A DNA stretch of 64,000 nucleotides from Candidatus Aphodosoma sp. (GTDB lineage Bacteria > Bacteroidota > Bacteroidia > Bacteroidales > Paludibacteraceae), in the NCBI GenBank assembly GCA_045631465.1, contig JAZQUV010000046.1, positions 2,675 to 66,674 on the forward strand, read 5' to 3'. The position numbers were made by a program, and so were the translations under genes. Shown here one piece after another: positions 30,743-50,765 of this stretch. Position 1 is the stretch's first letter; the number at the start of each line of letters is the position of its first letter. The notes beneath the pieces are model-generated. The model ran no database searches. It saw only the letters and a program-made list of their open reading frames with translations, and was not told the DNA's origin.

Positions 30743-32098
30743 ATGAAAATCAAAACAATCTTAGGTATTACCCTACTTTTGGCAGTTGCAATAGTATTGG
30801 GGTATAAATTTGCCAACACAGCACCTGACAAATCGTTAGATGCTAATGCACAAGCACATAAAGTATTGGAATTGGGACAATGTATGGCTTGCCATGCTCA
30901 CGCACCAGAATTGCCATTCTATGCAAAATTTCCTGTTATTGGACCAGTTGTAAAAGACGATGCAGCAAGGGCCATACGTGAATTTGACGCAGAAGCGGTA
31001 ATAAAAGCAATTGAAAACGGAGAAAAGATTGATGAAGTTACCCTTAACAAATTGGAATACTCATTTGTTAACGGCACTATGCCTTTGGCTAAATATTATT
31101 TAGTGCATTGGGGCTCTGAAGTGAATGATGTAGAAAAAGATATGATGCTAAATTGGATTGAATCATATCGAACAGAACATCATTATAATGGATTGGCAAC
31201 TGCAGAATATGCAAATGAACCGGTGCAAGTGATACCAGATGCATTGCCAGTTGACCTTGCAAAAGTAGAATTAGGACGTATGTTGTATAACGACGTTCGA
31301 CTCTCGGTGGATAATACTATCTCTTGTGCATCGTGCCACGATTTGAGCAAAGGGGGAACAGACAATAAACCATTCTCGGAAGGTGTGGATGGACAATTTG
31401 GAGGTATTAATGCACCTACGGTATTTAATGCAGTATTCAACTTTGTACAATTCTGGGATGGACGCGCTGCCGACTTGGCTGCTCAAGCAGCTGGACCTCC
31501 GACTAACCCAGTAGAAATGGGACATAAAAGTTGGAGAGATATTGAGGCAATATTGTCGGCTGACAACGAATTTGCAAAAGCATTCACTGAAGTGTATCCT
31601 TCGGGGGTAACAGAAGAGAATATTTGTAATGCTATAGCAGAATTTGAAAAAACATTAATCACACCAAATTCGGCATTTGACCTATACCTCAAAGGTAATG
31701 CGGAAGCTATGACAGCAGAGCAGATAGCTGGCTATGAACTATTTAAAGAAAATAGTTGTGCTACTTGCCATGCAGGTGTAAACTTTGGCGGTTTGACATA
31801 CGAATATATGGGTACACGCGCTGAATATTTTGCAGATCGAGGTACAGAACTTACAGTAGAAGATTATGGCCGAGGCAAACAAGAGGAGTGCGCATTCTTT
31901 GATCATAGATTCAAGACTCCTGGTTTGCGTAATGTAGCCCTTACGGCTCCATACTTCCATGATGCAACACAAGCTACTCTACTTGATGCAGTGAACGCAA
32001 TGGTGAAATATCAAACTAGCGAAACTATTAGTGAAAAAGAAGCTGAACAAATAGTTGATTTCTTGAATGCATTGACAGGAGAAATACCAGTGAAATAA
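30743..32098 (+). CDS. tri-haem cytochrome c peroxidase (CCP/MauG family, YhjA-like)
   Basis: The ORF-track start at 30647 is a TTG. The ATG at 30743 gives MKIKTILGITLLLAVA (signal/anchor). Three CxxCH motifs (CMACH, CASCH, CATCH) and CCP-like core motifs (FWDGRA, PYFHD). Confidence 0.87.
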   Translation: MKIKTILGITLLLAVAIVLGYKFANTAPDKSLDANAQAHKVLELGQCMACHAHAPELPFYAKFPVIGPVVKDDAARAIREFDAEAVIKAIENGEKIDEVTLNKLEYSFVNGTMPLAKYYLVHWGSEVNDVEKDMMLNWIESYRTEHHYNGLATAEYANEPVQVIPDALPVDLAKVELGRMLYNDVRLSVDNTISCASCHDLSKGGTDNKPFSEGVDGQFGGINAPTVFNAVFNFVQFWDGRAADLAAQAAGPPTNPVEMGHKSWRDIEAILSADNEFAKAFTEVYPSGVTEENICNAIAEFEKTLITPNSAFDLYLKGNAEAMTAEQIAGYELFKENSCATCHAGVNFGGLTYEYMGTRAEYFADRGTELTVEDYGRGKQEECAFFDHRFKTPGLRNVALTAPYFHDATQATLLDAVNAMVKYQTSETISEKEAEQIVDFLNALTGEIPVK

Positions 32099-32122
32099 TT
32101 GATAATTGACAATTGATAATTG

Positions 32123-32159
32123 CTCGACTACTGAATATCAGTGGTCGAGTTTTTTTTTT
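32123..32159 (+). terminator. intrinsic terminator of the peroxidase gene
   Basis: CTCGACTACTGA-ATA-TCAGTGGTCGAG followed by T10. Confidence 0.75.
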
Positions 32160-32472
32160 GAGCCATTACTAATATTTTTTATTTACATACGCTAAGATTA
32201 TAAACAACTAAGATAGCATTGTAGTTAGACTAGAATAGATGGTAGATTCTATTTTGATATTGACAAAGCAAATTAACATAATGGTATAAATTATAGGGAT
32301 TACAGTAAGGAGATTGTAGGATTGACTGTAGGAATAACTATAGTCTAACGGAAATATAATTTATTATAGAGATGAACAAATATATTTTTGAAATTTATAT
32401 AAAAAAAACTATCTATAAATGGATATACTTATAGTAACATTCTCTCAGTAGAGCATTGATATATATAAAAGA

Positions 32473-32720
32473 AAGACGATGTGTCATAATACCCAAATTG
32501 CTGCGTTGTTCTCAATATTAAGCTTCAGTCATGTACTTCAGTACACTCCTTTCAGCTTAAATTTCAACGCCTTGCACTTTAGGCATTCTTTAGATTCTTG
32601 CTTCGTTCATCAAAATAAGTAAAACTTCTTTTGCTTTCGCTTATCGCAAGAATTCTTACACATCTAAAAGAGGCTGAGCCAAAACTAGTGTTTTGACACA
32701 GCCTCTTGAATTATTTATAA
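32473..32720. repeat. ~240-bp multi-helix element, copy 1 (candidate structured RNA), including terminal hairpin 32669-32706
   Basis: Aligns end to end with 44274-44520 at about 94-95 percent identity by hand. Nested complementary segments and two compensatory changes between copies. Lies 25 nt beyond the stop of the 1858-aa gene. Confidence 0.85.
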
Positions 32721-32730
32721 CCTTAAAAGA

Positions 32731-35700
32731 TTATTTTACAGAAACTTTAACAGTGTTGCCGTTAACGCGAACGAGAACAACATCAGAGTTAAGAGCGTTG
32801 ATAGCAGTAACATTAGCAGCAGCTTCGGCAGCAAAGATACATTGACCTTGAACTGTGAATACTTCAACCATGTTGCCTTCTGCAGTTTCAACATAGATCA
32901 TACCGTTGTTAGCATAAACAAGAGCAGCAAGTTCTACATTTTCAACGCCAACCTCAGGGTTAAGAGTATAGATAGCAGTTACTACTTCTGATTCTACATA
33001 ACCACCATTGTAGTCGAATGCATTAGTCAAGCGAGCATAAGCTGTAACAGTTGCAGTTTCGCTCAATTCGAATGGAGCAGTATAAAGAACTTCACCGTCG
33101 AGAACGAATGGTGCAATATCACCATTATTATCTTCGCTACCTTCTTCGCCACCTTCTTCATTGTTTGCATAAGCAATAGTATAAAGAATTTCAGTGTTTT
33201 CAGTAGCACAAGAGAGAGCAACAGAAATAACATTAGCAAATTCGCAAGCATCTGGAGTGAATACTGGAGCAGCTGGAGCAGCTGGAGCTACATAAGCCTC
33301 GTGAGAGATGTAGTTGAGTTGGCGAGTGCCTTTGTAATCACTTACAGTAGCGATAACAGATACTTTAACTTTAGCATCGCAAGTAGCTTCGAGTTTGAAG
33401 TTGTTGTAAACATCAATAGTTGCACTATCAGGATTCATAACTTTAGCATTGCGATTATTGCTTGTAAATGCAAGAGCTTCAGTAAACTCTACATTGTGGA
33501 GAACAACATATTCGCTGATTTGAGCGCTAGTCTTAACTTCTTTGATAGTAACAAGACGAGGAGCAACAGCTTCGCCAGCAACAGCTTCAGGAAGAACAGC
33601 GTCAACCATTTCTGGGATGTTGCCATACAATTCGTAAGTACCTTTAACGCCAGTCAAACGATCGCCATTTTTGAGTTCAGTTTCTTTATAGTCATAGTCG
33701 AAAATCAACAATGAACCTGTTTCGTCTTGAACATAGATATTAGCACCATTTTTGTAAGTTACAGTAACTTCGCCAGCGATAGTAACTTCTGCAGTTGGGT
33801 GTGCGAGATCGAGGAATTCAGCGATATTTTTAACCACAGCATTGTCGATCAAGATATCTTTAGCATCAACAACAGAGAAAGAAGGAAGGTCTTCTACTGC
33901 ATAACCGATGTCGAAGTTACCTTTAACAGTTACTTCTTGGTTTGCAAACATAGCAAAGTTGACAGCGCCAACAAGACGAATTTGTTTTTCGCCAACTTTG
34001 AGGTAATTTTGATAAGATACATCAACTTGACCATCCCATTCTGAGACGATAGTATCTACAATAACAGTACCTGTCACTTGATAGTTTTTAGCTTGATATT
34101 CAACAGAACCTGGGCCAAAGAAACCATCGATATTATCGATTTCTGTATAGTTAAGAGCATTACCAGAGTTGATTTTCTTGATAAGAGTACCAAGTTGAAC
34201 TTCAACGATAGAAGGCAAAGTCATAGTACCATCATCCATTTTGATAGAATCGACATTTGTTGGATAATCGATATCACCAATATGATAGTCGTAACGATAA
34301 GCTTGGAGAGCACGACCTTCGGCATAACCTTCTTTACCATATGTGCTAGTAAGGTCGCGGTAAGGATAATAACCACCTTTACAGAAGTAGATAGAGTCAC
34401 CAGCTGCAAATGTTTCAGAAGTTTCCATAGCCCAAACAGTAAGACCAGTGATTGTACCATCGGCGTTAGTTTGTTGTACATTAAGAGCAGTACCACCTTC
34501 AGAAGAGAATGCACGGTTTACAAGAACAGGAGAAGTGAAACCAGAGATAGAATATTGTTCAGAAGTTTCTTGACCCCAGCGAGCCATATAGTCTTTAAGT
34601 TCGTGGAACATAAGAACGCGGCTTGAACCAGTGTGATATAAATCGTAAGCAGTAACAGTGAATGCATTAGCTTGGTCTGCGTTTACGTGATAGATGAGAC
34701 CAGTAAGTTTAGCATCAGCAGGGACAACTTCGCCTACAACATCGATTTTCACTGAATCAGTAGTCATCATGTAATAAACACCTTCAGCAATGCGATAAGT
34801 TTTAGCAACAGCGATATCAACGATTTCGCCTTCGAAGTTAGCTGCGAAATTAACAAGAGAGTCGATAGTCACTGTTTCTTTAGAAAGACGACCACGACCT
34901 TTATCTTCGAGGGATGTAGGGACGATACGAGCCATACAATCTGCTGTAGATGGATAATATGTACCTTCAATGTTAGAAATTTTTCTATCAAGAGCCAATG
35001 TATCAACACCATCGAGGAGGATAGCACCTGTACCATCTTGGATAATAATACCTCTTTCTGTGAGATAAGTTGTTGTAGCATCACCAGTGAATTTAACGAG
35101 TTTAGATTCAGTGTTATTGCGGATGCTGATGATAGTAGCACCTTCTTCAGTAGAAACTGCGTTTTCGATAGCTTCTTGGCTGATTGGCATGAAACCATAT
35201 TGAGAAGTCATCCAAGATTTATCAGCAATAGCAGTGATATTGTTAACTGGATAGAATGTAAAGAGACCGAGATTATCTTCGAAGTTAGAACGAGTATAAG
35301 TAATTTTATAATCTCCTTGGATAAAGTCGCGGTCTTTACGAGTTACAGAATAAACAGTAGTATCACGTTCAACAAATTCAACACCTTCGAAACGAACAAG
35401 CATACCGTTGTAAGTACCAGCAGTTTGAGCTTCGAGATATTCTTGAATAGTGATTACTTTAGGAATGAGAGGGTTGTTAGAGTTTTTAACTGTGTAAGTA
35501 TTTTCTGTACCTGTAATACCGAAACCAGTATATTGGTTATAAATACCTTTAAGACCAACGATAGAGTCACCTACCGCAAGAGAGCAAACGCGAGTTGCTG
35601 CAGTGTCGAGTTGAACACGCATTGCACCAGTAGCATCTTGAACATAGAGGAAGTTTTGTGGAATATCTTCCATTGTGTTCCAATCTGTTTGAACTGCTTG

Positions 35701-38307
35701 TTGGATATAAGTCAAAATAACTGGTTTTACAAGTTCGTAAGTGATACCAGAAGCAGGAGCGCCAGCAGCAACCAAATCAGCAATAGATTCGAATTTAACA
35801 TTAGAAGAAACGAAACCATTACGATCTGGGATAATCAATTGTACTTTATCACCTGAGTTTTTAACATCGGCATAAGCTTTGAGACCTACGCGTTCAGTAA
35901 GATACGCAGCAGGAACAGTGAAGCCTGGAGTAACAAGAAGGATTGAATCGCCTTTATCGCTGAAGAAATAGTAGTCAGAACCAACAGCTTTAATTTGACC
36001 AACTGCAATAGTCAAATATTTTGTATCATAAGAACCTGCACTACGTTTGCTTGAACCAACAAGGTAAGCAAGGTCATAAAGAGAAGAGATAGCAGGAATG
36101 TTAGCTGTATGACCAGAAGAGATAATTTCGATATTACCAGCTTCTACATCAAGGTGGTTACCTGCAATGATTGCATCAGAAGCTTGGTCATAACCAAATA
36201 CGGTCAAAATACCTTTCACGCCTTTAATGCTATCACCTGCCGCATATGCTTTACCATTTTTGTCTGTAGCTGTTGTGCGGATAGCTGAATAGTATGTAGA
36301 ATAACCTGATTTTTGAGAAACGAAGAGAGTTGTATTTTCACCTTCAGTATAAACGTAAGAGATAAGCATAGGCTCTGCAAGAGCAGCAGCTTTTGTAGCA
36401 GTGTTACCTGCACCTACAGCAGTTTTGTATTCGTTGATATTTGAATAACCTGTAGCTTCGGCAGTGAGAACCCAGAAGAAAGTGTTAATACCAGAAGAAG
36501 AACCTACTTCGATGAAATAACCAGTTACTGTACCCATACCTGGAATAGTAACACCATAAGGAGCATTAAGGAATACTTTTTCGCCGTTATAAGTTACACA
36601 TTTATAAGAAGAGTAACCCACTTTTTCAGTTGTAGCAACGAAATCGGCAATAGTAACAGTTTCGTAAGTAAATTCAACAACTACGAATACTTCACGAGAC
36701 ATTTGGATTTCATTCCAGTTATCGTCATATTCATAATATGTTTCAGATGCTTTATAACCTTTGAGAGTTGTAGCAAGTTTAGGAAGTTTGTTTTCGCCAT
36801 CGTAAGAGATACGCATTTTTTCTTCACCAATCATTACATATTTCACTTCGGCATAGTCGTCAGCGCTATATTCAGTAATGATATTTGCATTAGTGAGAGT
36901 TGTGTATTCGATTTCAGCTTCAACTGCGACGAACACCTTACCACGAGCTTCGCCATAAGGATGAGGACCATAATAACCAACAAGAGCAGCTTCGCCAGGA
37001 AGAGCACCACCCTCGTAGTAAACAGGAAGAGTTGATTCACCTGCAGCTACATAATAATTGCCACTTTCATCAGTATTGATTGTTGTTTTTGCAATTTTCA
37101 CTGCTTTATATTTATAACCTTCGTAATCGGCTACAAGAGCAGCAGGAGTTACAGTTTGATAAGTAACTGTTGATTCAGCACCAAGAGTATAAGTTAATTT
37201 TTCTGTATCAGGAGAATAAAGAACGCCAGGATAATTTTCTTCTTGAACATAGTAACCATAATCGATAGTTTGATTAAAGTTCCAATATGCATTAAGAGAT
37301 GTAAGTTTCATACCTGGTTTTACTGCAGTTTCCTCTCTCCAAGCATAACTTTGTGCTTTCATTGCACCAGTTGCATCTTCGATGATGATACCATCATTAA
37401 GAGCAAAAGTGATAACAGCATCAGAAGAAGTAAATTCTACAGGAATATTTTCGCCAGTGAGAGCTTTAACTTGAGCTACGGTTGTGCATTGAGCAGTTGC
37501 AACAGGAGCAGCAGCTACAGTATAGTTCAAAGTGATAGCTTTATTAACGCCATCAGCAAAAGTAACAACACCAGCAGGGATTTCGAGAATATATTGACCT
37601 GCAATATTAACAGAAGTCAAACCTCCCATATATGCTGGATCGATATAAAGACGAAGACCATTAGATGAAAGAGAGTCTGCTTTGAACATCATATAACCTG
37701 CAGGCATAGTCATGTCATAGTCAGGCATATAAGTAGAAAGCACAGGAATGTTTGTACCTTTTGCCAAATCTGGTTCAGCAACTGTGATAGTTTGATAATC
37801 AGTAAAGTTAATAACAATTTCTTTGATTTCAGATACAGTTGCGTTGTTGGCTGGATTAGCAGTGAATGCAGCATCTACGCCAGGAGCAACAGGTGCGCCA
37901 CCAGCAATAGTGAAATTCAACACATAATCAACAGTGCTGAGATCTGTACCATTAAATTTAACAGTACCAGCTGCAAGAACAATACGATAGTTGCCTGCAG
38001 TGATTTTGTCTCCATAACAACCACCATCTACAGTAAGAGTAATTTGTGAGCCAGAAGCAGTACGATCAAGCATACCAGCAGTACAATAGTTTTCTACAGG
38101 AGCAGCGTTTCCATCTTCTGCTACTTTGTAGAAGCAGATTGGATACATCGATGTTGTAGTAGCTTTTTCTACCCCCGTAAAAGTGATAGTAGCCTCTGTG
38201 AAAGACTCAAGAGTAGCACCCTCGGTGATACTCCATGTTGCCGTAATTTGGGCAAACATTGTCACTGATAAGAACAATGACATAAAAAAAAGAGTAATCT
38301 TTTTCAT
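32731..38307 (-). CDS. giant secreted surface protein (1858 aa), probable T9SS cargo, unknown function
   Basis: Signal peptide MKKITLFFMSLFLSVTMFAQ, acidic T/V/Y/G-rich sequence with repeated modules, and a C-terminal ~70 aa resembling a T9SS sorting domain. Uninterrupted 5.6-kb ORF. Confidence 0.85.
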   Translation of the reverse strand: MKKITLFFMSLFLSVTMFAQITATWSITEGATLESFTEATITFTGVEKATTTSMYPICFYKVAEDGNAAPVENYCTAGMLDRTASGSQITLTVDGGCYGDKITAGNYRIVLAAGTVKFNGTDLSTVDYVLNFTIAGGAPVAPGVDAAFTANPANNATVSEIKEIVINFTDYQTITVAEPDLAKGTNIPVLSTYMPDYDMTMPAGYMMFKADSLSSNGLRLYIDPAYMGGLTSVNIAGQYILEIPAGVVTFADGVNKAITLNYTVAAAPVATAQCTTVAQVKALTGENIPVEFTSSDAVITFALNDGIIIEDATGAMKAQSYAWREETAVKPGMKLTSLNAYWNFNQTIDYGYYVQEENYPGVLYSPDTEKLTYTLGAESTVTYQTVTPAALVADYEGYKYKAVKIAKTTINTDESGNYYVAAGESTLPVYYEGGALPGEAALVGYYGPHPYGEARGKVFVAVEAEIEYTTLTNANIITEYSADDYAEVKYVMIGEEKMRISYDGENKLPKLATTLKGYKASETYYEYDDNWNEIQMSREVFVVVEFTYETVTIADFVATTEKVGYSSYKCVTYNGEKVFLNAPYGVTIPGMGTVTGYFIEVGSSSGINTFFWVLTAEATGYSNINEYKTAVGAGNTATKAAALAEPMLISYVYTEGENTTLFVSQKSGYSTYYSAIRTTATDKNGKAYAAGDSIKGVKGILTVFGYDQASDAIIAGNHLDVEAGNIEIISSGHTANIPAISSLYDLAYLVGSSKRSAGSYDTKYLTIAVGQIKAVGSDYYFFSDKGDSILLVTPGFTVPAAYLTERVGLKAYADVKNSGDKVQLIIPDRNGFVSSNVKFESIADLVAAGAPASGITYELVKPVILTYIQQAVQTDWNTMEDIPQNFLYVQDATGAMRVQLDTAATRVCSLAVGDSIVGLKGIYNQYTGFGITGTENTYTVKNSNNPLIPKVITIQEYLEAQTAGTYNGMLVRFEGVEFVERDTTVYSVTRKDRDFIQGDYKITYTRSNFEDNLGLFTFYPVNNITAIADKSWMTSQYGFMPISQEAIENAVSTEEGATIISIRNNTESKLVKFTGDATTTYLTERGIIIQDGTGAILLDGVDTLALDRKISNIEGTYYPSTADCMARIVPTSLEDKGRGRLSKETVTIDSLVNFAANFEGEIVDIAVAKTYRIAEGVYYMMTTDSVKIDVVGEVVPADAKLTGLIYHVNADQANAFTVTAYDLYHTGSSRVLMFHELKDYMARWGQETSEQYSISGFTSPVLVNRAFSSEGGTALNVQQTNADGTITGLTVWAMETSETFAAGDSIYFCKGGYYPYRDLTSTYGKEGYAEGRALQAYRYDYHIGDIDYPTNVDSIKMDDGTMTLPSIVEVQLGTLIKKINSGNALNYTEIDNIDGFFGPGSVEYQAKNYQVTGTVIVDTIVSEWDGQVDVSYQNYLKVGEKQIRLVGAVNFAMFANQEVTVKGNFDIGYAVEDLPSFSVVDAKDILIDNAVVKNIAEFLDLAHPTAEVTIAGEVTVTYKNGANIYVQDETGSLLIFDYDYKETELKNGDRLTGVKGTYELYGNIPEMVDAVLPEAVAGEAVAPRLVTIKEVKTSAQISEYVVLHNVEFTEALAFTSNNRNAKVMNPDSATIDVYNNFKLEATCDAKVKVSVIATVSDYKGTRQLNYISHEAYVAPAAPAAPVFTPDACEFANVISVALSCATENTEILYTIAYANNEEGGEEGSEDNNGDIAPFVLDGEVLYTAPFELSETATVTAYARLTNAFDYNGGYVESEVVTAIYTLNPEVGVENVELAALVYANNGMIYVETAEGNMVEVFTVQGQCIFAAEAAANVTAINALNSDVVLVRVNGNTVKVSVK

Positions 38308-38386
38308 AAAATTGAGTTTTTTGGTTAAAAAATAAAGTTAATTATATTGTATTTTTCTATCAATTTTACAATAGACAATAACGTGG

Positions 38387-38394
38387 CAAAGATA
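38387..38394 (-). promoter_or_regulatory. candidate -7 box (TATCTTTG)
   Basis: TAnnTTTG on the - strand about 80 nt upstream of the 1858-aa ORF start. Confidence 0.4.
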
Positions 38395-38563
38395 CAAAAA
38401 TTTTTTATATTAGACAAATGTTTTGTGTTTTTTTGTTTTTTGTAAAAGAAATTATACGGATTCACCTTGTAATATATATAGGTGTATACTACACTAAAAT
38501 TTATCTCAAACACTTTTGATAAAAATTATTCGAAAAATAATTGGCAATATAAATAATTATCAT

Positions 38564-38571
38564 TAACTTTG
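38564..38571 (+). promoter_or_regulatory. candidate -7 box (TAACTTTG)
   Basis: TAnnTTTG 113 nt upstream of the pepD ATG. Confidence 0.4.
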
Positions 38572-38684
38572 CCGAGAAAATGTGTACTGCATAAAGTATA
38601 GGGTTTAGATAAATATTATATCATAGCAAACTCTACCTAACAATGTTAATAACCAATAATTAATAACTAATAACTCTGAAAATT

Positions 38685-40139
38685 ATGGCAAATTGTATTT
38701 GTGAACTTCAACCAACTGCATTATGGAAAAATTTCTATAATCTTTGTCAAGTTCCACACCCATCGCATCATCTCGAAGCAATTACTAAGTTGATTGTTGA
38801 CTTTGGTAAAGGTCTTGGTCTTGAAACAATTGTAGATAAAGCTGGTAACGTGCTTATCCGCAAACCTGCTACTCCTGGTATGGAAAATGTGACTCCTGTG
38901 ATTCTTCAAGCTCACATGGACATGGTGCCACAAAAAAATAACGATAAGGTACATAACTTTGAAACTGACCCTATTGAAACTATCATAGATGGCGATTGGG
39001 TACGTGCTAACGGCACTACACTCGGCGCAGACAACTGTATTGGTGTGGCTGCAGGTATGGCTATTCTTGAGAGCAAAGAGATTCAACATGGACCTATTGA
39101 ACTTTTCATTACTGCAGATGAAGAGACTGGTATGTATGGTGCATTTGGTCTTGAACCTGGTTTGTTGCAAGGCAAGTTGTTGATGAACATGGACTCTGAA
39201 GACTTCGGCGAACTCTATGTGGGTTGTGCTGGTGGTATGGATGCTACTATGGAGTGGAAATATCAGGGTGTTGCTCTTCCTGTTGGCGATATCGCGTTGA
39301 AAGTGAATATCACAGGATTGAAAGGTGGTCACTCTGGTTTGGAAATCAACCTTGGTCGTGCTAATGCAAACAAACTCTTGTTCCGTTTCTTGAAAGAAGC
39401 AGTATCGCAATATGAAGCTCGTTTGGCAAAAGTAGAAGGTGGTAATATGCGCAATGCTATCCCACGCGAAGCATATGCTATCATCACAGTGCCTGCTGAG
39501 GCTCGCGAAGAAATTGAAAAACTCGTTGAAGAATATCGCGACTTGTTCAACGAAGAATATAAAGTAACAGAAAACCCTATCATCTTCACTTGCGAAGAGG
39601 TAGAGGCTCCTGAAATGCTCATCCCTGAAGAAATTCAAGATGACTTGATCAATGCTGTAACTGCTTGTCCTAATGGTGTATTCCGCATGATTCCTGCAAT
39701 TCCTGACACTGTAGAGACTTCGATGAACCTCTCTATCGTTGAGGCTAATGCAGAAGAAATCTCTATCAAATGCTTGCTCCGCTCATCGGTTGATAGCAAA
39801 AAATATGAGTTGGCAGAGATGGTGGAAAGTGTGTTTACATTGGCTGGTGCTAAAGTTGAGTTCTCTGGTTCTTACTCTGGTTGGAATCCTAACCTAGACT
39901 CAAAAATCCTCAAAGCAATGAGCGAAACATACGAACAACTTTACGGCGAAAAACCTGCTGTTAAAGTTATTCACGCGGGTTTGGAATGTGGTATCCTCGG
40001 CGCTATCGAACCAGGTCTTGATATGGTTTCTTATGGACCAACTATCCGCCACCCACACTCACCAGACGAAAAAGTGAATATCCCTAGTGTTGCTAAATTC
40101 TGGGATTTCACAGTGGCTACTCTTGCTAATATTAAATAA
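38685..40139 (+). CDS. pepD: aminoacyl-histidine dipeptidase (M20C)
   Basis: 484-aa ORF. LWKNFYNLCQVPHPSHH, LQAHMDMV and TADEETGM motifs typical of PepD. Confidence 0.93.
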   Translation: MANCICELQPTALWKNFYNLCQVPHPSHHLEAITKLIVDFGKGLGLETIVDKAGNVLIRKPATPGMENVTPVILQAHMDMVPQKNNDKVHNFETDPIETIIDGDWVRANGTTLGADNCIGVAAGMAILESKEIQHGPIELFITADEETGMYGAFGLEPGLLQGKLLMNMDSEDFGELYVGCAGGMDATMEWKYQGVALPVGDIALKVNITGLKGGHSGLEINLGRANANKLLFRFLKEAVSQYEARLAKVEGGNMRNAIPREAYAIITVPAEAREEIEKLVEEYRDLFNEEYKVTENPIIFTCEEVEAPEMLIPEEIQDDLINAVTACPNGVFRMIPAIPDTVETSMNLSIVEANAEEISIKCLLRSSVDSKKYELAEMVESVFTLAGAKVEFSGSYSGWNPNLDSKILKAMSETYEQLYGEKPAVKVIHAGLECGILGAIEPGLDMVSYGPTIRHPHSPDEKVNIPSVAKFWDFTVATLANIK

Positions 40140-42239: not shown

Positions 42240-42362
42240 AATACACACTGAGAGTGTGTATTTTTAAGGTTGCTTGCACCTTGCTTGCAGGTTGCTGTAT
42301 AGTATATTTAAATTTTGGAATTTTGAAATCCGAATACACACTGAGAGTGTGTATTCGGATTT
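42240..42362 (+). repeat. composite hairpin-spacer-hairpin element, copy B. The first hairpin plus T-run acts as terminator of the HD gene
   Basis: AATACACACT-GAG-AGTGTGTATT plus TTT (42240-42265), then a GGTTGCTTGC...GCTGTATAGTATATTTAAATTTTGGAATTTT spacer, then the 17-bp-stem hairpin AAATCCGAATACACACT-GAG-AGTGTGTATTCGGATTT (42326-42362). Confidence 0.85.
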
Positions 42363-42444
42363 TAGTATATTTTGGGTATAAATGATAAAAAAAACTGAGC
42401 CCAAATGTAGATTTTGACTCAGTCGATATGAATTATAAATTGGA

Positions 42445-43560
42445 CTAACTTCCACCTAAAACTTTTCCGCCTTTCACACTTTTGTTTTCGGCTATTTCGG
42501 CTAGATGAAGTTGCCACTTCCAAATGGATTTAACGGTATCTTCAAGCGATGTTTCGGCTTTCCATTTGAGCATTTTATTGGCATATGTTGGATCGGCCCA
42601 AACTTGCTCAATATCTCCTGCACGACGACCGATTATTTCATGTGGGACTTTCACATCGTTGACAGTTTCGAATGCGTTAAGTATTTCGAGGACAGAGAGA
42701 CCTCGCCCTGTTCCGACATTATATGTTTCGACTTTTTCTACTTTGCCTTCGAAGATACGGTGCATTGCTGCTATGTGTGCTTTGGCTAGATCGACGACAT
42801 TGATATAGTCGCGAATGCAAGAACCATCGGGTGTGTTATAGTCATTGCCAAAGATGCTGAGTTTTTTGCGAATACCGGCTGCAGTTTGTGCGATAAATGG
42901 CAATAAATTATTAGGTGTTCCGTTTGGCAATTCGCCTATCAATGCAGATGGATGCGCTCCTATTGGATTGAAATAACGCAAGACTATACTTTTTATCGAT
43001 GGATTTGATGTTGTTGTATCATTGATTATGTCTTCGCAAATTTGTTTTGTATTGCCATAAGGAGAAAGTGCTTTTTGTAGTGGTGCAGATTCTGTTACAG
43101 GCAAGACCTCGGGCTGACCATAGACTGTGCATGATGATGAGAAAACAATGCCTTCGATCTTGTGTATAGGCATAAGTTCGAGTATGTTGATTAACGAAAC
43201 GACATTGTTGCGATAATACATCAATGGTTTTTCGACTGATTCGCCTACAGCTTTGGATGCGGCAAAGTGGATTACGGCACGAATTCCTTCGTTCTTTGAA
43301 AGGAATTTATCCATTGCTACATAGTCGGTACAATCAATATTCTCAAAAATAGGTTTTACTCCTGTGATTTTTTCAATGCCTTTGAGTACGTCAATATTTG
43401 AATTTGATAGATTGTCTACAATACAAATTTCGTAACCAGCCTCGATTAACTCAACCACTGTGTGAGATCCGATATAACCTAAGCCACCTGTAACAAGAAT
43501 TTTATCTTTGCTAGTAGTTGAAGATTTGAACAACTTTTTAATCTTTTTAGTTACCCCCAT
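42445..43560 (-). CDS. galE: UDP-glucose 4-epimerase
   Basis: 371-aa ORF. ILVTGGLGYIGSHT Rossmann motif and a YGNTK (YxxxK) context. GalE-like throughout, with short N- and C-terminal extensions. Confidence 0.9.
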   Translation of the reverse strand: MGVTKKIKKLFKSSTTSKDKILVTGGLGYIGSHTVVELIEAGYEICIVDNLSNSNIDVLKGIEKITGVKPIFENIDCTDYVAMDKFLSKNEGIRAVIHFAASKAVGESVEKPLMYYRNNVVSLINILELMPIHKIEGIVFSSSCTVYGQPEVLPVTESAPLQKALSPYGNTKQICEDIINDTTTSNPSIKSIVLRYFNPIGAHPSALIGELPNGTPNNLLPFIAQTAAGIRKKLSIFGNDYNTPDGSCIRDYINVVDLAKAHIAAMHRIFEGKVEKVETYNVGTGRGLSVLEILNAFETVNDVKVPHEIIGRRAGDIEQVWADPTYANKMLKWKAETSLEDTVKSIWKWQLHLAEIAENKSVKGGKVLGGS

Positions 43561-43604
43561 AATATTTTAAAACTTTATTCTTTTTCTGATTTCGAATTTG
43601 GTTG

Positions 43605-43612
43605 CAAATATA
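43605..43612 (-). promoter_or_regulatory. candidate -7 box (TATATTTG)
   Basis: TAnnTTTG on the - strand 45 nt upstream of the galE start. Confidence 0.4.
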
Positions 43613-43694
43613 CTAAAAAAAAATTACATGAACAAAGAATAAAGTTTTTTTTATTTTTAACCTAAATCATGACAGATATACAAAAAAAATATTG

Positions 43695-43702
43695 TACCTT
43701 TG
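43695..43702 (+). promoter_or_regulatory. candidate -7 box (TACCTTTG)
   Basis: TAnnTTTG 72 nt upstream of the asnC-like ATG. Confidence 0.45.
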
Positions 43703-43774
43703 CGGAAAATACGAGAACATTATTGTTGCTAGAAAAAATGCTTAACCTTATTAAATCATTCCACACATTTTTAT

Positions 43775-44275: not shown

Positions 44276-44520
44276 GGACGATGTGTAATAACGCCCAAAT
44301 TGCTGCGTTGTTCTCAATATTAAGCCTCAGTCATGTACTTTAGTACACTCCTTTCGGCTTAAATTTCAACGCCTTGCACTTTAGGCATTCTTTAGATTCT
44401 TGCTTCGCTCATCAAAATAAGTAAAACTTCTTTTGCTTTCGCTTATCGCAAGAATTCTAACACATCTAAAAGAGGCTGAGCCAAAATTTTAATTTTGACA
44501 CAGCCTCTTTTTATTTATTC
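44274..44520. repeat. ~240-bp multi-helix element, copy 2, including terminal hairpin 44470-44508
   Basis: Same orientation as copy 1. It begins on the asnC-like stop codon, and the hairpin ends 3 nt from the stop codon of the 2084-aa gene. Confidence 0.85.
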
Positions 44521-47500
44521 AAGCCATCGACACTTTTCAGTTTTTGACCAGATATAGTATATATTTGATTATCTTTTAATATATATATACGTCCATCAAT
44601 AAGTATCTTATAGGCTTTATTTTTCTTATTATCTGAAAATATTACGTCGTCTTCGGATATAATAATTGGTTCGAAATAACCCGATAATACAATGTTGTGA
44701 TTAGGCATTATTGTAGGAAGTACTGACAATTCGCCATTTTCATCAAGGTAATTCCAGCCAATAAAATTATGATTCTCTTTTGTTGGTGCCTCTAATAATG
44801 TTATAGTGTCTCCAACTTCATATGTTTGAATTTGCCAAATTGTGTCATCAAGCATATATGTTATTGTATATTCTTCGACGTCAATAATTATTTGTTCGAA
44901 ATAACCATACAATGCTATATCGTGGCTTGGCATTATCGTTGGAATTGTAGTTGTATCACCTTCTTCATTTATAAATGTCCAACCAACAAAATTATACCCT
45001 TCTTTGGTTGGGGTTTCTAGTAGTTCTATAGCATCTCCTTCTTTGCAAGCTTGAGTTTGCCATACCTCATTATCAAGATAATATATAATATTATATGTTT
45101 TTTTGAATCCGCTAACATTGATAGTTGTTTCGCCATAAACACCAGAACCATCCAATGCGTAAGCTCGAACCACAATGATTCCATTCGTTTCGCCATCAAC
45201 CGACAATAATCCATCTTTGCTGATTGTTGCAAAGTCATTACCTTGCTCTATTACCCAATTCACGCTCTTATAAGTTGAATAATAAGGGTAGACATATGCT
45301 TTCAATTGAGATGTTAGATTGATACCAGCCACAATGTCTAGGCCTTGTACGTCAATAGTTTCGACAAAAGAGACTCTATGTGCTACGTCGGTTGAAACAA
45401 TATTAGATATTGATGCACTTGATAGAGATTTTGTTTTTCTATGTTTTAGAATATTTTTTTGTCCTGCAAATACAACTTCTACAGCATAATAATTTACACC
45501 GTCGTTTGCAGTCAAATCTGTATATGTATTCATGTTGCCAGAAACCTCACCGATTAAGGTCATTTTATCTATATCGGATCCTCTTAGTATACGATATTGA
45601 CTAACGTCACGACCTTCGTACTTAGTCCACACCAAATTCCAAGCGCCATTCATACCTCCATTTATCATCACGTGTGGTGCTTGATGTACGTTTGTTCTTT
45701 GTGATTCGCCGTAAGTAGTAATATAACTAATAGCATAGCGCGAAGCTTGTACATTTGAATTAGACATTAAATCAATATATTCTTGATTATCTACGCCAAC
45801 CTCTCCTATCACATTGAACACATTGGCAAAAGACGTCTCCTTGTAGATCCTGATTCCTACCACATCTGTAGGCATTGTGGCTGATTTTTCCCATACAACC
45901 TTATTGTGACCGTCGATAGTAGTCACATGAAGTATATTAGGTGTGATGTGATCGCCAGTCACGGTAATAATTCTGTCAAAAACAACATTACCAAAACCAC
46001 TATATACAATACGGCGTACTTTGTATGTTCCGACTTGATTGAATACGAATATTGCTGTATCTCCTTTTGTAGATAATAGGTCGACAATATCGCTATACTC
46101 AATAGCCGTAAATGCCTCTTCGCCAGAAGCAACAAACCATTCGTCATTATTTACACTTTCAATAACACATCCTACTGTGGCATATTGCATTACAGATGAT
46201 GGCAAGTAGAATGATGCATTAGGCAATGGTGATACATAAATCGAATGCTTGTAGTCGCCCATAGTAATAGTTTTGACTCCGACACTATCCCATGCAACTA
46301 TATAACAATCATTTTCGGCAAGAATAACTTGTCCGCCACCCCAATCAATGGTGTCTTGAGTGTTGGCTACTATTTTAATTTGCGTTTCTATGCCTACGCC
46401 AGTCACTGCTGGAGCATCAACAATTACCTTTTCGTTCACAACAAATTCTAATACTTCAGAAAAATCAGATTCTTGATTTTGCATATCAACACCTTGTACA
46501 CACACTTCATACTCACCTACAGGAATTGAGGTAATAGGAATCGAAATACGATTTGTTTCTAATAAATTTAAAGAAGTAGGGAGATGCACTCCATTTTTGG
46601 TGCTATTGCAAGGAGATATGAAATATGCACCTTCGCCATCTTTGCCTTTATGTTTCAAACTAATATTATAACGCATACGACACTCAGGGGTTTCGGCATC
46701 ACGGCTATGATTCCAAACTATCTCAATCGCTTTCTCTCTATACCCTACATTTAAGTTAGATGGAGCATTAGGGCGCATGTTGGCAATACGCATAAGTGTA
46801 TTATCAAAACGCATCTCACCTTGTGGGGTAATAAATGGAGCTTTTTCCATATAAACCTCTACACCTTCGACAAAATCATAAGCTCTATTTGGCAAAATCA
46901 ACAACACTCCATCCACATCATTTATGCCACCAGTTGCCACAACATCAAGATATCCGTCATTATTAAAGTCAAACAACGAATTTTTCACACTTGTTATTCC
47001 GTCCAAATAATCTATTCTACCATCGCTCCACGCAATATAATATTTTGATTCTGACTTATATATCAAATCCAAAGTCCCATCATTATCCAGATCTTCAATT
47101 ATCGACACCAACTCATTGCGTGTATGCGTAAATAGAGTATCTTTTTTAGTAAAACTAAAATTGCCATTATTTTCGTATAATTCATAAATGTATTGTGTTC
47201 CCTCTGTGTTTTTCACCAAAATATCGACCAATCCATCTTTTGTCAAATCTCTATATAACATCGGTTCTCCAATATTCAATGGATAATTCTGATATTCAGT
47301 ATAATTACCGAGATTGCGACATAAATAATAGATTGTAATACCAGTTTGCATATCTCTAAATACTGATGTATAATCTATATTGCCATCATTATCAAAATCA
47401 ATAAAATATTCAGGCCTAAAAGACAAAGATATCTCATCTGTATTTACCATCATATTTTTATTACCACTATTCAAAATAGTGGCATATGCTGCACCAGCAC

Positions 47501-50500
47501 CATAAGATTGCACTGCTATTTGCTTATAAACATCAACCTGTCCGTCCTTATTAACGTCTAATACATAGCCTACTGTTCCTGAATTAGAGAGATAATTATG
47601 ATTATTCCACATCTTGTTAATTTTGATAGCCTCACCATCGACGCCATAGCTATAAAAACCTTCTGACTTAACTAGATATTCCATCAAACCATCCTCATCC
47701 AAATCGACATCGAGATATGCCATTTGAGTAATTTTTCGACCTGCAGATATAGCCCCTACTTCGATATATTTTTCTAACACATTAAATCCGCCATTGGTAT
47801 ACAACGATATCAATTTCTCACCTCCGCCAGTAAACACAACTTTATAGACTCTGCCATCATTGCTCTTATCAACAACTATAGCATCTTCACAACGTAAATA
47901 GTGAGTAGTATCTAACAATACATTTTCGTGAAGATGTATTTCACAAGTATCTCCTACTCCAAAAGGCATCTTGTAAAGCATCTCAAATGCCGATGCACAA
48001 TTCTCCTTCTCAAATACCACCTCTTCACTAAACAACGATCCCAAATCATTTAAGTCCACAACTTGAATAGATATATAATATTTTCCTGCCTTCCAAGTAT
48101 TTGTATTTAGCAATCTATATCTATTCACATTTTGATTTCCACCCAAACGATTACGACGAGTACCATCTGACATAGCATGAGCATAGACCACATCGCCTTT
48201 ACCAGGCTCAGTTCCTATACGCAGTGCGTATGTAAGATCGACACTAGATGTCTCTTTGTCCTCACCTTGCTCCCAAGTAATTGAAAGCAAACTCGCTGAT
48301 GCATCGTACACTACCGATGGAGCTTGTGGCTGTGTAGGTCTTTCGTTTACTACTTCCGACAAAATCATATATTTATTATTGCCAAGCACCTCCAACCTAC
48401 CATCGTTATTCAAATCTACGACATCATAAGCACCACCACGTGATAAAATAAAATTCAAATCTTTTGGAGTTTCACTTATTTGCACTCCATCCACGTCAAA
48501 AGAAACTAATCTGTTTTCGTTACTCGACACAAGATATTTTGCAATAATTTCATAGTATCCGTCAGCATCATAATCCACACAACAATCAAAATTATATGAT
48601 TTTTCATAGAAATATTCGTGACTTGTATACTTGCCCGCTTTATTTTCTAGCAAAATCAAATAACTACCGGCTAATTTGTCTGAATAATTAAATACCAACA
48701 ATATATCTTTGTCATTATCTTTATCAAAGTCATAACACCACAATTTTGTATATTGTGCACTCGCATATATCTTTTGTTCTGCATATGTTCCATCATTTTG
48801 TTTTGTATATATCACCACATTAGCTCCATCAAAAGCCACACCATCTAGCACACCATCATCGTTCAACTCAACAAAATCAAGACCTTCTGGAAACTCATCA
48901 TATACAATCATTCCCTCACCTTTATTGAAATATACATTACCCTCTTCGAAATAATCCATCACACCATCGCCATCAATATCCATATTCATGTTCGACATGG
49001 CTTTTGTTATAGGTTTACCCCCTTTAATTATCATTCCATTTCTCAACGAAGGTATACCCGACGTTTTCATAAAACTCCCCCTATACTTACGTAGCGATTT
49101 ACCTCCATATTCATCTATAGTCATAACACTTACTCTATTTTCCTCTACCCCATTGTTTCGCAATGTGAATGCTCTATCATTGTCCAAATCACTACCATTA
49201 TCGAGATATGAAATTAAATCCATATAACCATCATTGTCATAATCCATTGGAAATACAACACCAGATGTAGGTGCATTAATAAGTAGTTCTTCTAAATTAT
49301 AATTAGCATCTGCTTTATAAACATAATGCTTGCTATATGTATCATTAGAATAAGCATCCAACATAGCATCGTTGGTCAAATTCATCCATTTTATCAAATA
49401 ACCATTCTTATCACCCTCAAATTTCACATCTTCGCAAGAAGCAAAGTTCAACCAGTCCATACCTAACCATAATGTTGAACTACTACCTTTTAGCCACTCC
49501 ATCTCTCCATCGCCATCTACATCATAGTAGTTTTCTTTACCATTAGCAATCGACAACGACATATCCACTTGTTCCAATGGTGCTATTGGGCGTATTTCCA
49601 ACCCTCCTATTATATAGTCACTCATAACATTCACGTTTCCAATTTCCTCAAAACCAAATTCGTCGGATACAACATCGTTAACAAATTGAATAGTATGACT
49701 ACCTGCTGGCAAAGCAAATTTGATTTTCGAATTCCAATATTCTTTACGGAAATTACAATATTTACCATCTACATACAATTTACAATCATCTCTATTAAAA
49801 TCGAATGATACAATTGACACTTCTGGTAAATTATATTTCACCATCAAAGTAATGCTATCACAATCGGCATATACCATACCCTGAGAAACGATACTATCCG
49901 TACCCAACAATACCAATGGCACTCTTGTATCATTCACAATCTCCACTTCCACATCAGAATTCGCTTCGATCACATTCTTTATATCTTCACTGACACACAC
50001 ATTTCTTACCGACAACTCCTCTATAGTATAATCCCAATAAGCATCACATCTCACCTCTATGGTATATTCACCTGGATATAAATAGATAAAACTATTTCTA
50101 ACCCCTATAAGTGTATCTACCCTATTCACTATCATCTCCCATGTACTATATCTTCCTCCTCTCAAATCACACATAAATTTCACAATGCTATCCGACTTGA
50201 AGCTTAACACAAAGCCATGATATCCATTTTTAAACATAGTTTCATCGCCTTGACACACCATCTCACCTGTCTCTGTCAAATACCATGGAGATAGGCTATC
50301 ATTCTTAAAACTCAATATTTCAACATCCGATTTTTCTTGAATAAATCTTATCAAATCTTCATTCCCCACAACACCATTAACCCCCAAACCTATTATATCA
50401 TTCCTACGACTATTATTAAATTCAAGTTTCAACCAATGTTTTCCAATAGGCAAATAAACATCACTATTAGCACGTTCCACTCCATCTACATAAAATGTAG

Positions 50501-50765
50501 AATACGACAGTTTAGTGTAATCCATCAAACAAATACTATCCGATTCATAACACAACATAAGAGTTGATACACCACACGTACTTTTCAAAGAGTCTTTGCC
50601 AACAATCTCAAATGGGCACGAAGCATCGTTTACTACCTCCAAAATTCTCACATTACTATTAGCTTCTATCATTGCTCTAATGGCCTCTGTTGCATTAACC
50701 ACAACAGACGAAATAACATAAAAACTAAGTACAAAAAACAATCTTAACATTTTATTCATAAACAT
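44511..50765 (-). CDS. giant secreted FG-GAP/VCBS-repeat protein (2084 aa) with FN3-like, Big_2-like and Listeria-Bacteroides repeat modules
   Basis: Signal peptide and three N-terminal ~120-aa modules. 13 Dx[DN]xDGxx[DE] calcium-loop motifs, FN3-like segments and one Ig-like segment. Two tandem ~70-aa repeats (Y.I.Y.LD...W...GD.I.LLE.PTKE.[YH]NF.GW). Confidence 0.85.
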   Translation of the reverse strand: MFMNKMLRLFFVLSFYVISSVVVNATEAIRAMIEANSNVRILEVVNDASCPFEIVGKDSLKSTCGVSTLMLCYESDSICLMDYTKLSYSTFYVDGVERANSDVYLPIGKHWLKLEFNNSRRNDIIGLGVNGVVGNEDLIRFIQEKSDVEILSFKNDSLSPWYLTETGEMVCQGDETMFKNGYHGFVLSFKSDSIVKFMCDLRGGRYSTWEMIVNRVDTLIGVRNSFIYLYPGEYTIEVRCDAYWDYTIEELSVRNVCVSEDIKNVIEANSDVEVEIVNDTRVPLVLLGTDSIVSQGMVYADCDSITLMVKYNLPEVSIVSFDFNRDDCKLYVDGKYCNFRKEYWNSKIKFALPAGSHTIQFVNDVVSDEFGFEEIGNVNVMSDYIIGGLEIRPIAPLEQVDMSLSIANGKENYYDVDGDGEMEWLKGSSSTLWLGMDWLNFASCEDVKFEGDKNGYLIKWMNLTNDAMLDAYSNDTYSKHYVYKADANYNLEELLINAPTSGVVFPMDYDNDGYMDLISYLDNGSDLDNDRAFTLRNNGVEENRVSVMTIDEYGGKSLRKYRGSFMKTSGIPSLRNGMIIKGGKPITKAMSNMNMDIDGDGVMDYFEEGNVYFNKGEGMIVYDEFPEGLDFVELNDDGVLDGVAFDGANVVIYTKQNDGTYAEQKIYASAQYTKLWCYDFDKDNDKDILLVFNYSDKLAGSYLILLENKAGKYTSHEYFYEKSYNFDCCVDYDADGYYEIIAKYLVSSNENRLVSFDVDGVQISETPKDLNFILSRGGAYDVVDLNNDGRLEVLGNNKYMILSEVVNERPTQPQAPSVVYDASASLLSITWEQGEDKETSSVDLTYALRIGTEPGKGDVVYAHAMSDGTRRNRLGGNQNVNRYRLLNTNTWKAGKYYISIQVVDLNDLGSLFSEEVVFEKENCASAFEMLYKMPFGVGDTCEIHLHENVLLDTTHYLRCEDAIVVDKSNDGRVYKVVFTGGGEKLISLYTNGGFNVLEKYIEVGAISAGRKITQMAYLDVDLDEDGLMEYLVKSEGFYSYGVDGEAIKINKMWNNHNYLSNSGTVGYVLDVNKDGQVDVYKQIAVQSYGAGAAYATILNSGNKNMMVNTDEISLSFRPEYFIDFDNDGNIDYTSVFRDMQTGITIYYLCRNLGNYTEYQNYPLNIGEPMLYRDLTKDGLVDILVKNTEGTQYIYELYENNGNFSFTKKDTLFTHTRNELVSIIEDLDNDGTLDLIYKSESKYYIAWSDGRIDYLDGITSVKNSLFDFNNDGYLDVVATGGINDVDGVLLILPNRAYDFVEGVEVYMEKAPFITPQGEMRFDNTLMRIANMRPNAPSNLNVGYREKAIEIVWNHSRDAETPECRMRYNISLKHKGKDGEGAYFISPCNSTKNGVHLPTSLNLLETNRISIPITSIPVGEYEVCVQGVDMQNQESDFSEVLEFVVNEKVIVDAPAVTGVGIETQIKIVANTQDTIDWGGGQVILAENDCYIVAWDSVGVKTITMGDYKHSIYVSPLPNASFYLPSSVMQYATVGCVIESVNNDEWFVASGEEAFTAIEYSDIVDLLSTKGDTAIFVFNQVGTYKVRRIVYSGFGNVVFDRIITVTGDHITPNILHVTTIDGHNKVVWEKSATMPTDVVGIRIYKETSFANVFNVIGEVGVDNQEYIDLMSNSNVQASRYAISYITTYGESQRTNVHQAPHVMINGGMNGAWNLVWTKYEGRDVSQYRILRGSDIDKMTLIGEVSGNMNTYTDLTANDGVNYYAVEVVFAGQKNILKHRKTKSLSSASISNIVSTDVAHRVSFVETIDVQGLDIVAGINLTSQLKAYVYPYYSTYKSVNWVIEQGNDFATISKDGLLSVDGETNGIIVVRAYALDGSGVYGETTINVSGFKKTYNIIYYLDNEVWQTQACKEGDAIELLETPTKEGYNFVGWTFINEEGDTTTIPTIMPSHDIALYGYFEQIIIDVEEYTITYMLDDTIWQIQTYEVGDTITLLEAPTKENHNFIGWNYLDENGELSVLPTIMPNHNIVLSGYFEPIIISEDDVIFSDNKKNKAYKILIDGRIYILKDNQIYTISGQKLKSVDGLNK

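Follow-up and report, generated by a model that had tools for sequence, protein, structure and literature searches.

A structured repeat family with a terminator-like hairpin at gene 3' ends in Candidatus Aphodosoma (Bacteroidales)

In Escherichia coli, REP/BIME hairpins can act as terminators of transcription or as stabilizers of mRNA. The REP, BIME and REPIN repeats of Proteobacteria are mobilized by RAYT transposases (PMC3116915, PMC3337134), and REPINs are described as persisting and remaining conserved over long periods (bioRxiv 10.1101/2022.05.22.493013). The element described here, which occurs twice in a 64,000-nucleotide stretch of Candidatus Aphodosoma DNA (termed the window; contig JAZQUV010000046.1), resembles these repeats in that a short palindromic motif is arranged in inverted pairs with a spacer, in that it forms hairpins, and in its extragenic position at gene 3' ends or between convergent genes. 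It differs from REPINs in that the spacer of its second motif pair is a conserved, independently folded body of ~180 nt and not a short linker, in the 2-5 copies per genome found here (a lower bound) versus tens to hundreds for REPINs, in the phylum of its host, and in that no RAYT gene was found in the 325 kb searched.

The Correia elements of Neisseria, the ERIC sequences of enterobacteria, and the BOX and RUP elements of pneumococci are MITEs with regulatory cargo, which are co-transcribed with their neighbors, fold stably, and can supply terminators or promoters. The Aphodosoma element is likewise small, non-coding, bounded by terminal inverted repeats, intergenic, and present in some strains and absent from others; unlike these MITEs, it has no clear target-site duplication, replaces a native terminator at one site, and is strongly biased in orientation relative to the upstream gene. 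The bcr4-6 repeats of the Bacillus cereus group have a conserved secondary structure with compensatory changes. They too are interspersed (100-400 nt) and keep their fold through compensatory substitutions, suggesting selection on the single-stranded form, whereas their sequence and host are unrelated to those described here and they lack the combination of a terminator hairpin and nested inverted motif copies. Group IIC introns insert right behind the hairpins of intrinsic terminators, co-oriented with the upstream gene, are at least ~600 nt long with six ribozyme domains, and usually encode a reverse transcriptase. The element shares both their location at terminator-type hairpins and their orientation, but here the hairpin is part of the element and travels with it, and no intron domains were detected in Rfam searches, on which grounds a group II intron was rejected.

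Set beside these systems, the element is a new repeat family of a known kind, absent from Rfam, and is unusual in three respects: its folded body is conserved, it replaces native terminators, and its conservation exceeds that of a neighboring coding gene.

Anatomy of the unit in the window

The conserved unit spans 32475-32707 (copy 1) and 44277-44509 (copy 2), at an offset of 11802, and the two copies align end to end without gaps at ~95% identity, with 8 substitutions outside the loop of the terminal hairpin. A preliminary description, made from the sequence alone, had aligned 32473-32720 with 44274-44520 in the same orientation at ~94-95% identity; the alignment agrees, except that the start given for the second copy is one base off. 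Similarity ends abruptly on both sides. The flanks are unrelated, as had been proposed, and the giant genes beside the two copies have no detectable similarity to each other. A 32-mer from the element has two exact occurrences in the window (0 expected), and a profile search (nhmmer) matched copy 1 from 32706 to 32469 (E = 8e-83) and copy 2 from 44508 to 44271 (E = 3e-84).

Each copy sits just 3' of one giant minus-strand gene, 32731..38307 (1858 aa) for copy 1 and 44511..50765 (2084 aa) for copy 2, and the window neighbors of the copies are otherwise housekeeping genes; an exact database look-up of two window proteins returned no record. In copy 1, 23 nt separate the stop codon of the giant gene from the hairpin, and copy 2 occupies the entire gap between the stop of an AsnC-family gene (44275) and that of the giant gene (44511). 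On the strand of the giant genes the order is stop codon, hairpin, UUUU, and multi-helix body, and the hairpin (H1) is the gene-proximal end of the element. The terminal hairpin of the preliminary description (32669-32706) is thus present, but on the minus strand of the genes it is the part nearest the stop codon and not the far end. The features of both copies are as follows.

32475..32707, minus strand (read 5' to 3' from 32707 to 32475): whole unit of copy 1, comprising H1, UUUU, the P1-closed body and GTC, as delimited by the family alignment and nhmmer
32668..32707 (core 32670-32705), minus strand: hairpin H1 of copy 1, whose arms are motif copies m1 and m2'
32666..32669, minus strand (AAAA on the plus strand): UUUU of copy 1, directly 3' of the H1 core stem and overlapping the AA bases at the edge of the H1 range given above
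32652..32665, minus strand: motif m3 of copy 1, the 5' strand of P1, AGAUGUGUAAGAAU, which pairs with 32478-32486 and resembles an H1 arm
32592..32651, minus strand: arm A of copy 1, an outer stem (UUCUUGC/GCAAGAA) and an inner hairpin, nearly invariant across the family
32488..32587, minus strand: arm B of copy 1, a long irregular stem with an apical hairpin, where most compensatory changes lie
32475..32490, minus strand: motif m4' of copy 1, AUUAUGACACAUCGUC, which is both the 3' strand of P1 and the terminal inverted repeat at the distal end
44277..44509, minus strand: whole unit of copy 2, with H1 at 44470-44509 and UUUU at 44468-44471
44280-44286 with 44460-44466, minus strand: P1 of copy 2, with arm A at ~44394-44453 and arm B at ~44290-44389
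32478-84 and 32658-64: complementary segments of copy 1, GATGTGT and ACACATC, checked against the sequence
32503-08 and 32565-70: complementary segments, GCGTTG and CAACGC, likewise checked
32518-24 and 32554-60: complementary segments, TTAAGCT and AGCTTAA, likewise checked
32532-36 and 32541-45: complementary segments, TGTAC and GTACA, likewise checked
32595-601 and 32646-52: complementary segments, TTCTTGC and GCAAGAA, likewise checked

All of these complementary segments had been listed in the preliminary description and lie where it placed them, and the two compensatory differences that it reported between the copies are real (TTAAGCT/AGCTTAA to TTAAGCC/GGCTTAA, and CAAAAC/GTTTTG to CAAAAT/ATTTTG).

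On the minus strand, the family consensus reads AAGAGGCUGUGUCAAAAU-loop-AUUUUGGCUCAGCCUCUU (H1), UUUU, A, GAUGUGUCA (5' strand of P1), arm A, arm B, UGACACAUC (3' strand of P1), and GUC; the unit ends read GAGGC... and ...CATCGTC. P1 closes a two-armed body of ~180-190 nt. One 13-16-nt motif occurs four times, as the two arms of H1 and the two strands of P1, forming two inverted pairs: m1, GAGGCTGTGTCAAAAT; m2, given as its reverse complement, GAGGCTGAGCCAAAAT; m3, AGATGTGTCAGAAT; and m4, also as its reverse complement, GACGATGTGTCATAAT. The terminal inverted repeats (GAGGCTGTGTCAAAAT versus the reverse complement of ATTATGACACATCGTC) agree at 13/16 positions and the inner pair (GATGTGTCA/TGACACATC) at 9/9; equally, the reverse complement of m4', GACGATGTGTCATAAT, matches the 5' arm of H1, GAGGCTGTGTCAAAAT, at 13/16 positions. 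Conservation across the family ends at m4' (32475..32490 in copy 1). Unit length ranges from 233 to 310 nt, and three copies of one genome have an extra stem-loop of 72-73 nt inside arm B; one of the three (L003) is chimeric, with other sequence in place of H1 and of the body's first part. A diverged, stand-alone version of arm A occurs at L010:28-130, and no solitary unit ends were found in the related sequence searched.

The consensus H1 alone folds at -23.9 kcal/mol into a 15-pair stem with one mismatch, followed by UUUU, which is invariant in 19/19 aligned copies; the plus-strand counterpart, a T-run, lies outside the conserved unit and is missing in 5/18 copies. A simple terminator consensus scan did not call H1, because of the stem mismatch and the presence of only four U. 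H1, a putative terminator of transcription, occupies the place of the native terminators of two related loci (L038 and L041).

The element is non-coding. The sole internal open reading frame of the preliminary description, a 47-aa plus-strand frame said to be broken in copy 2, indeed has a stop there and in the copies that read ACCTAAA; a 17-aa minus-strand frame (MCQNSCDKRKQKKFYLF) has a stop at codon 3 in copy 2, L002, and L027, and no open reading frame is conserved across the family. The Bacteroidetes promoter consensus (TAnnTTTG / TTTG) is absent from both strands of the family consensus, and a scan of the element for sigma-70 type sites found no more than in shuffles, on which two grounds an independent sRNA gene was rejected. 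The convergent plus-strand sRNA that had been suggested is also unlikely, as the left flank has no conserved promoter and is a coding end in two copies, and the suggested 3'-derived sRNA is unlikely in its classical form, as the terminator-like hairpin lies upstream of the body on the gene strand. Rfam 15 gave no match for the whole window at gathering thresholds, and for the element at E <= 10 it gave chance matches only (bit scores of 8-22 versus thresholds of 50-289), in keeping with the earlier remark that the element was not recognized as any named RNA family. A retron ncRNA (msr-msd) is similar in shape (P1, a short arm, and a long arm) and was rejected because the downstream genes are unrelated, often convergent, and share no long co-oriented reading frame. 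An integron attC site was rejected as well: the ends have no GTTRRRY core, and the copies are single and dispersed and not in arrays.

Family, host genes and sites without the element

The family as recovered here numbers 21 copies, window copies included, which come from four Candidatus Aphodosoma genomes and one metagenome. Thirteen of these are in four Ca. Aphodosoma MAGs of a species-representative genome collection, at 2-5 per genome, which is a lower bound because the genome scan required an exact match to a degenerate pattern. On metagenome contigs, a gapped pattern found 14 loci, 6 of which are true copies by profile search, all from one assembly; the other pattern loci, on marine and other contigs, proved to be chance matches in the same search. 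Phage and plasmid collections gave no match with blastn, and four scans of viral contigs gave only chance matches, checked with nhmmer, which recovers every copy in the sequence searched. Copies are 89% identical pairwise at the median, and within the data searched the family is confined to Candidatus Aphodosoma (Bacteroidales).

In 16/18 evaluable copies, H1 follows the stop of a same-strand gene at a distance of 0-146 nt, and all 17 independent loci adjoin a gene 3' end; the two exceptions (L012 and L015) have a divergent gene upstream and, next to the opposite end of the element, the 3' end of a convergent gene. From their protein sequences, we take the upstream genes to encode SecG, the K subunit of a V-type ATPase, TrmB, a branched-chain aminotransferase, carboxynorspermidine decarboxylase, an ABC substrate-binding protein, a choloylglycine-hydrolase-like protein, and a leucine-rich-repeat surface protein, and these are functionally unrelated to each other. 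The downstream neighbors are also unrelated genes, convergent in about half of the loci, which led us to reject the idea that the element is a 5' leader of the gene that follows. The left flank shows no conservation and, in copy 2 and L006, is the coding end of a convergent gene. The coupling to very long secreted-protein genes that had been considered for the window therefore does not extend to the family, whose copies elsewhere follow SecG, TrmB, V-ATPase, and other genes; because the upstream genes share nothing, the link with the two giant surface-protein genes is coincidental and reflects two independent insertions in the window. In annotation, members of the family should not be taken for regulators or signals specific to giant surface-protein or T9SS-cargo genes.

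Related strains provide sites without the element at both window loci. At L038, the AsnC-family gene is 95% identical to that of the window in protein and the giant-gene 3' end is 98.3% identical in DNA, and the gap between the two stops holds only CAGAAAGGGGTTAGCTTAGACTAACCCCTTTCTTTT, a plain two-way terminator hairpin of 30 nt that is unrelated to the element. The 233-nt unit of copy 2 fills the exact gap of this hairpin, which is gone from the window; there is no target-site duplication at copy 2, and 30 nt of native sequence have been replaced. Since more distant relatives (L030-L037) have a homologous hairpin (GGTTAGC...GCTAACC) after the AsnC-family gene, the plain hairpin is the older state and copy 2 a later arrival that replaced it.

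For copy 1, a 9.3-kb metagenome contig (L018) that is 95.7% identical to window positions 30870-40129 has the element at the same place. L041, where the giant gene 32731..38307 has an 89% orthologue, contains nothing of the element and has an unrelated terminator. At L040, both flanks of copy 1 are 94-95% identical to the window, and H1 is retained there without the body; the missing stretch begins right after GCCTC, where H1 ends, and runs exactly to CATC at the end of P1: L040 reads ...GGCTCAGCCTC|GTTCTTTTATATATATC, and the window reads ...GGCTCAGCCTC[TTTTAGATGTGT...GACACATC]GTCTTTCTTTTATATATATC. TCTTT borders the body of copy 1 at either end, in a T-rich region, and L040 is compatible with an empty site if one substitution is allowed. 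A loss between the two TCTTT repeats plus one substitution would describe the difference as well, and hairpin-stimulated slippage would give such a loss. In 242 kb of related sequence, solo H1-type hairpins occur only at L040 and L003, and because they are otherwise almost absent, we read L040, from these comparisons, as a probable loss of the body and not as a target awaiting insertion; insertion of the body into pre-existing H1-type hairpins was rejected on the same observation. Written as a TCTTT-repeat deletion, the difference between copy 1 and L040 would need no transposition enzyme. The family alignment shows no consistent target-site duplication at the other copies.

The spread of 21 copies over unrelated loci, together with related strains that lack the element, indicates mobile or duplicative behavior, and of the two interpretations offered in the preliminary description, a conserved structured RNA and a mobile module, the latter is the better supported. 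The copies are small, non-coding, dispersed, and present or absent between strains (element-free at L038, L040, and L041), as in MITEs. We consider it probable that the element is a MITE-like or REPIN/BIME-like structured repeat, non-coding and mobile or duplicative, that supplies a terminator. The units sit right behind the stop codons of unrelated genes, in most cases with H1 facing the gene, and stand in for its own terminator; their movement would depend on a protein supplied in trans that recognizes the motif copies, and the minus-strand fold may serve a DNA intermediate in single-stranded form or else the 3' end of the upstream mRNA after read-through. No transposase or recombinase gene adjoins any copy, and a weak tblastn test of 325 kb for a Y1 transposase (queries E. 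coli RAYT and IS200 TnpA) gave nothing below E = 0.08.

With this family, the few interspersed repeats known in Bacteroidales gain a structured member that carries a putative terminator, and sites that have and lack the element are now documented in related strains. If the nested four-motif design marks the site of a recombinase or transposase, it would be a lead to an uncharacterized mobility system in gut Bacteroidales. Because the element is more conserved than a neighboring coding gene and replaces native terminators, the question also arises of whether such repeats are kept for their use to the host as terminators or 3'-end structures, or are copied by some enzyme.

Fold, strand and alternative readings

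The alternative that survives best is a structured RNA module under selection at the 3' ends of mRNAs, in which leaky read-through of H1 would allow the P1-closed body to stabilize or regulate the mRNA, or to be released as an sRNA, and which has been duplicated to several genes. We judge this unlikely, although far from negligible, and the fold itself speaks for it. The folding energy is -84 kcal/mol (z = -8.2 versus shuffles) for the minus strand, which has the sense of the upstream gene, and -61 kcal/mol (z = -4.7) for the plus strand, and the same pairs yield 72 G.U and 34 mismatch cells on the minus strand versus 23 and 83 on the plus strand; four pairs of the consensus are G.U on the minus strand. 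As the minus strand folds better and with fewer mismatches, the folded strand is the one in the sense of the upstream gene. A U-rich stretch follows P1 in most copies, which is also in line with a 3'-end module.

The consensus structure has 74 pairs, and over 19 copies 97.6% of the cells are paired; pairing is destroyed when the partners are slid by 1-3 columns. Six pairs change on both sides, a number reached by 2/500 shuffles, and changes on both sides occupy 13 cells versus 3.9 expected, reached by 0/500 shuffles, which upholds the multi-helix structure originally proposed from two copies and adds to the case for a selected RNA. Arm B holds 5/6 of the pairs changed on both sides; across the family, H1 has one pair changed on both sides and one U.G pair that varies to C-G or U-A, and the change from TTAAGCT/AGCTTAA to TTAAGCC/GGCTTAA recurs in 6/19 family members. 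In the helices of arm A, 24 to 26 of 28 columns never vary, and this arm is therefore uninformative on pairing either way. Taken together, these alignments show a conserved multi-helix fold whose covariation support is real, though modest because the copies are so alike.

The main fact that keeps the selected-RNA reading open, and one that is poorly explained by a purely selfish repeat, comes from L001 and L009, copies in two species that follow the same ABC-binding-protein gene. Their distal flanks can also be aligned over about 30 nt, and at this apparently orthologous locus the element is 96% identical between the species while the adjoining coding sequence is ~78% identical. Strong constraint, exchange between co-resident species, or independent insertions are possible sources of this difference; passive junk DNA would not stay so conserved, which argues for selection or for recent exchange between species.

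Several observations weigh against an RNA module at mRNA 3' ends. A hairpin of -23.9 kcal/mol and UUUU precede the body, and most transcripts should stop before reaching it; the element has no promoter consensus of its own; close relatives do without it at both window loci; two copies lack an upstream gene in the same orientation; the host genes have no common function; and Rfam holds no relative. In addition, singleton stem substitutions on the minus strand give A.C at 19 positions versus G.U at 9 (manual count), and because A.C singletons outnumber G.U, individual copies show no evident recent selection for minus-strand pairing.

A further proposal, which we put forward only tentatively and hold to be rather doubtful, is that the ~190-nt body is a functional single-stranded nucleic acid, either a read-through RNA or a DNA intermediate, under strong purifying selection across Aphodosoma, and that it directs the element to terminators or acts on the 3' end of the host mRNA. 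If this were true, Bacteroidota would have a type of element not described there before, a 3'-end RNA module that is mobile and self-terminating.

The arrangement of the motif copies also allows for a body that is a guide-type RNA of a non-autonomous insertion sequence, similar to the omega-RNA of TnpB or the bridge RNA of IS110, with the protein encoded elsewhere and the H1-like ends of the body directing insertion beside H1-type hairpins. Motif m3 is similar to m1 and hence complementary to the 3' arm of H1, and m4' is complementary to m1 at 13/16 positions; furthermore, the body has a suitable form, with ~190 nt and several helices exactly at the element end, and its boundaries are precise with no obvious target duplication. 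We nevertheless find a guide RNA quite improbable, given that a TnpB, IscB, or IS110-type gene is near 0/21 loci, whose immediate neighbors are housekeeping genes, that Rfam at E <= 10 returned only weak chance matches to unrelated families, that solo H1 target hairpins are nearly absent (only L040 and L003 in 242 kb), and that the alternative pairing of m1 with m4' and of m2' with m3 is 21 kcal/mol worse than the native fold. This difference from H1 plus P1, and the fact that H1 is transcribed first, also led us to reject an attenuator-like switch among the four motif copies. An IS200/IS605 derivative (PATE) or a TnpB omega-RNA was rejected because only one end has a local hairpin (H1) and the other pairs at long range, with no tnpA-like sequence in the 325 kb searched and no IS605-type RNA match in Rfam.

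Local duplication or gene conversion between the 3' regions of paralogous giant genes, which the window by itself could suggest, with two copies only and both behind giant genes, has against it the lack of detectable similarity between these genes and the unrelated flanks, and is already refuted by the 19 further copies at other loci in other genomes and by the closest relatives of the window copies. The nearest relative of each window copy is a metagenome copy and not the other window copy. As a sign of recent copying, copy 2 and L027 differ at 5 of ~232 positions yet occupy different loci. In the phylogeny of the family, the copies of one MAG (JAZLDO) form a clade of their own, and those of the other genomes are intermixed.

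The giant gene beside element copy 2

In more distant relatives (L030-L037), which share 88% identity with the window in the AsnC protein, a convergent ClpB-like AAA+ gene lies directly beside the AsnC-family gene, with 40 nt between the two. In the window the same genes are separated by a 6.2-kb giant FG-GAP/Listeria-Bacteroides-repeat gene (44511-50765), so the giant gene has itself been inserted in the window lineage.

The junction was further compared with L038, a metagenome contig that carries the AsnC/giant-gene junction and is element-free. Over window positions 43112-45726, the AsnC side has a DNA identity of 75.6% to this contig (88% within the AsnC coding sequence, where the differences are nearly all at third positions), and the giant-gene side of copy 2 has an identity of 98.3%. 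This step in identity is located at element copy 2, and it suggests that the 3' part of the giant gene was recently recombined or transferred between lineages.

Variant forms and relatives of element parts

An Aphodosoma MAG, JAZLDO, is the source of all three long-form copies of the element, each of which has an additional 72-73-nt stem-loop, GAGTCAAGTTCACTC...GAGTGTTGACTGACTC, within arm B:

L003, 373-709: long-form copy
L004, 680-1004: long-form copy
L008, 2992-3313: long-form copy

In L003, unrelated sequence with its own hairpin takes the place of H1 (the hairpin that opens the element on the minus strand) and of approximately the first 40 nt of the body. The inner portion of H1, CUGUGUCAAAAU...AUUUUGGCUCAG, has a close look-alike within the window in the terminator of an epimerase gene (42445..43560), and the replacement hairpin of L003 also shows similarity:

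42395-42424, minus strand: epimerase-gene terminator, CUGAGUCAAAAUCUACAUUUGGGCUCAG, then eight U

H1 may have descended from a terminator type that is widespread in the genus, or the H1-like hairpins may be decayed solo copies of H1.

Arm A also occurs alone, in a diverged form (UUUUUGC...AAUAAGCGAGCGCAAGGAAGUUUACUUCAGUUGCCGAGCGAAGCAAAAA), directly 3' of a small lipoprotein gene:

L010, 28-130, minus strand: stand-alone arm A

Here the outer stem is preserved by a compensatory C-G to U-A change, the inner hairpin is likewise preserved, and short GAGGAAT- and TCAACTT-type repeats border the arm. Arm A may be a separate motif of greater age.

Rfam search and a second repeat family

A search of the entire window (1-64000) against Rfam returned no families at the gathering threshold; riboswitches, tRNA, rRNA, and others were all absent from the matches. 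Another repeat family, of ∼120 nt and unrelated to the element, is likewise without an Rfam match; its copies lie at:

Window, 2704-2823: ∼120-nt repeat
Window, 42240-42355: ∼120-nt repeat
L007 (another Aphodosoma genome), 4991-5109: ∼120-nt repeat

In this family, the hairpin AATACACACTGAGAGTGTGTATT occurs twice, once on each side of a conserved ∼60-nt core (GGTTGCTTG...GCTGTATAGTATATTTAAATTTTGG), and the copies share ∼80% identity, both within the window and with L007.
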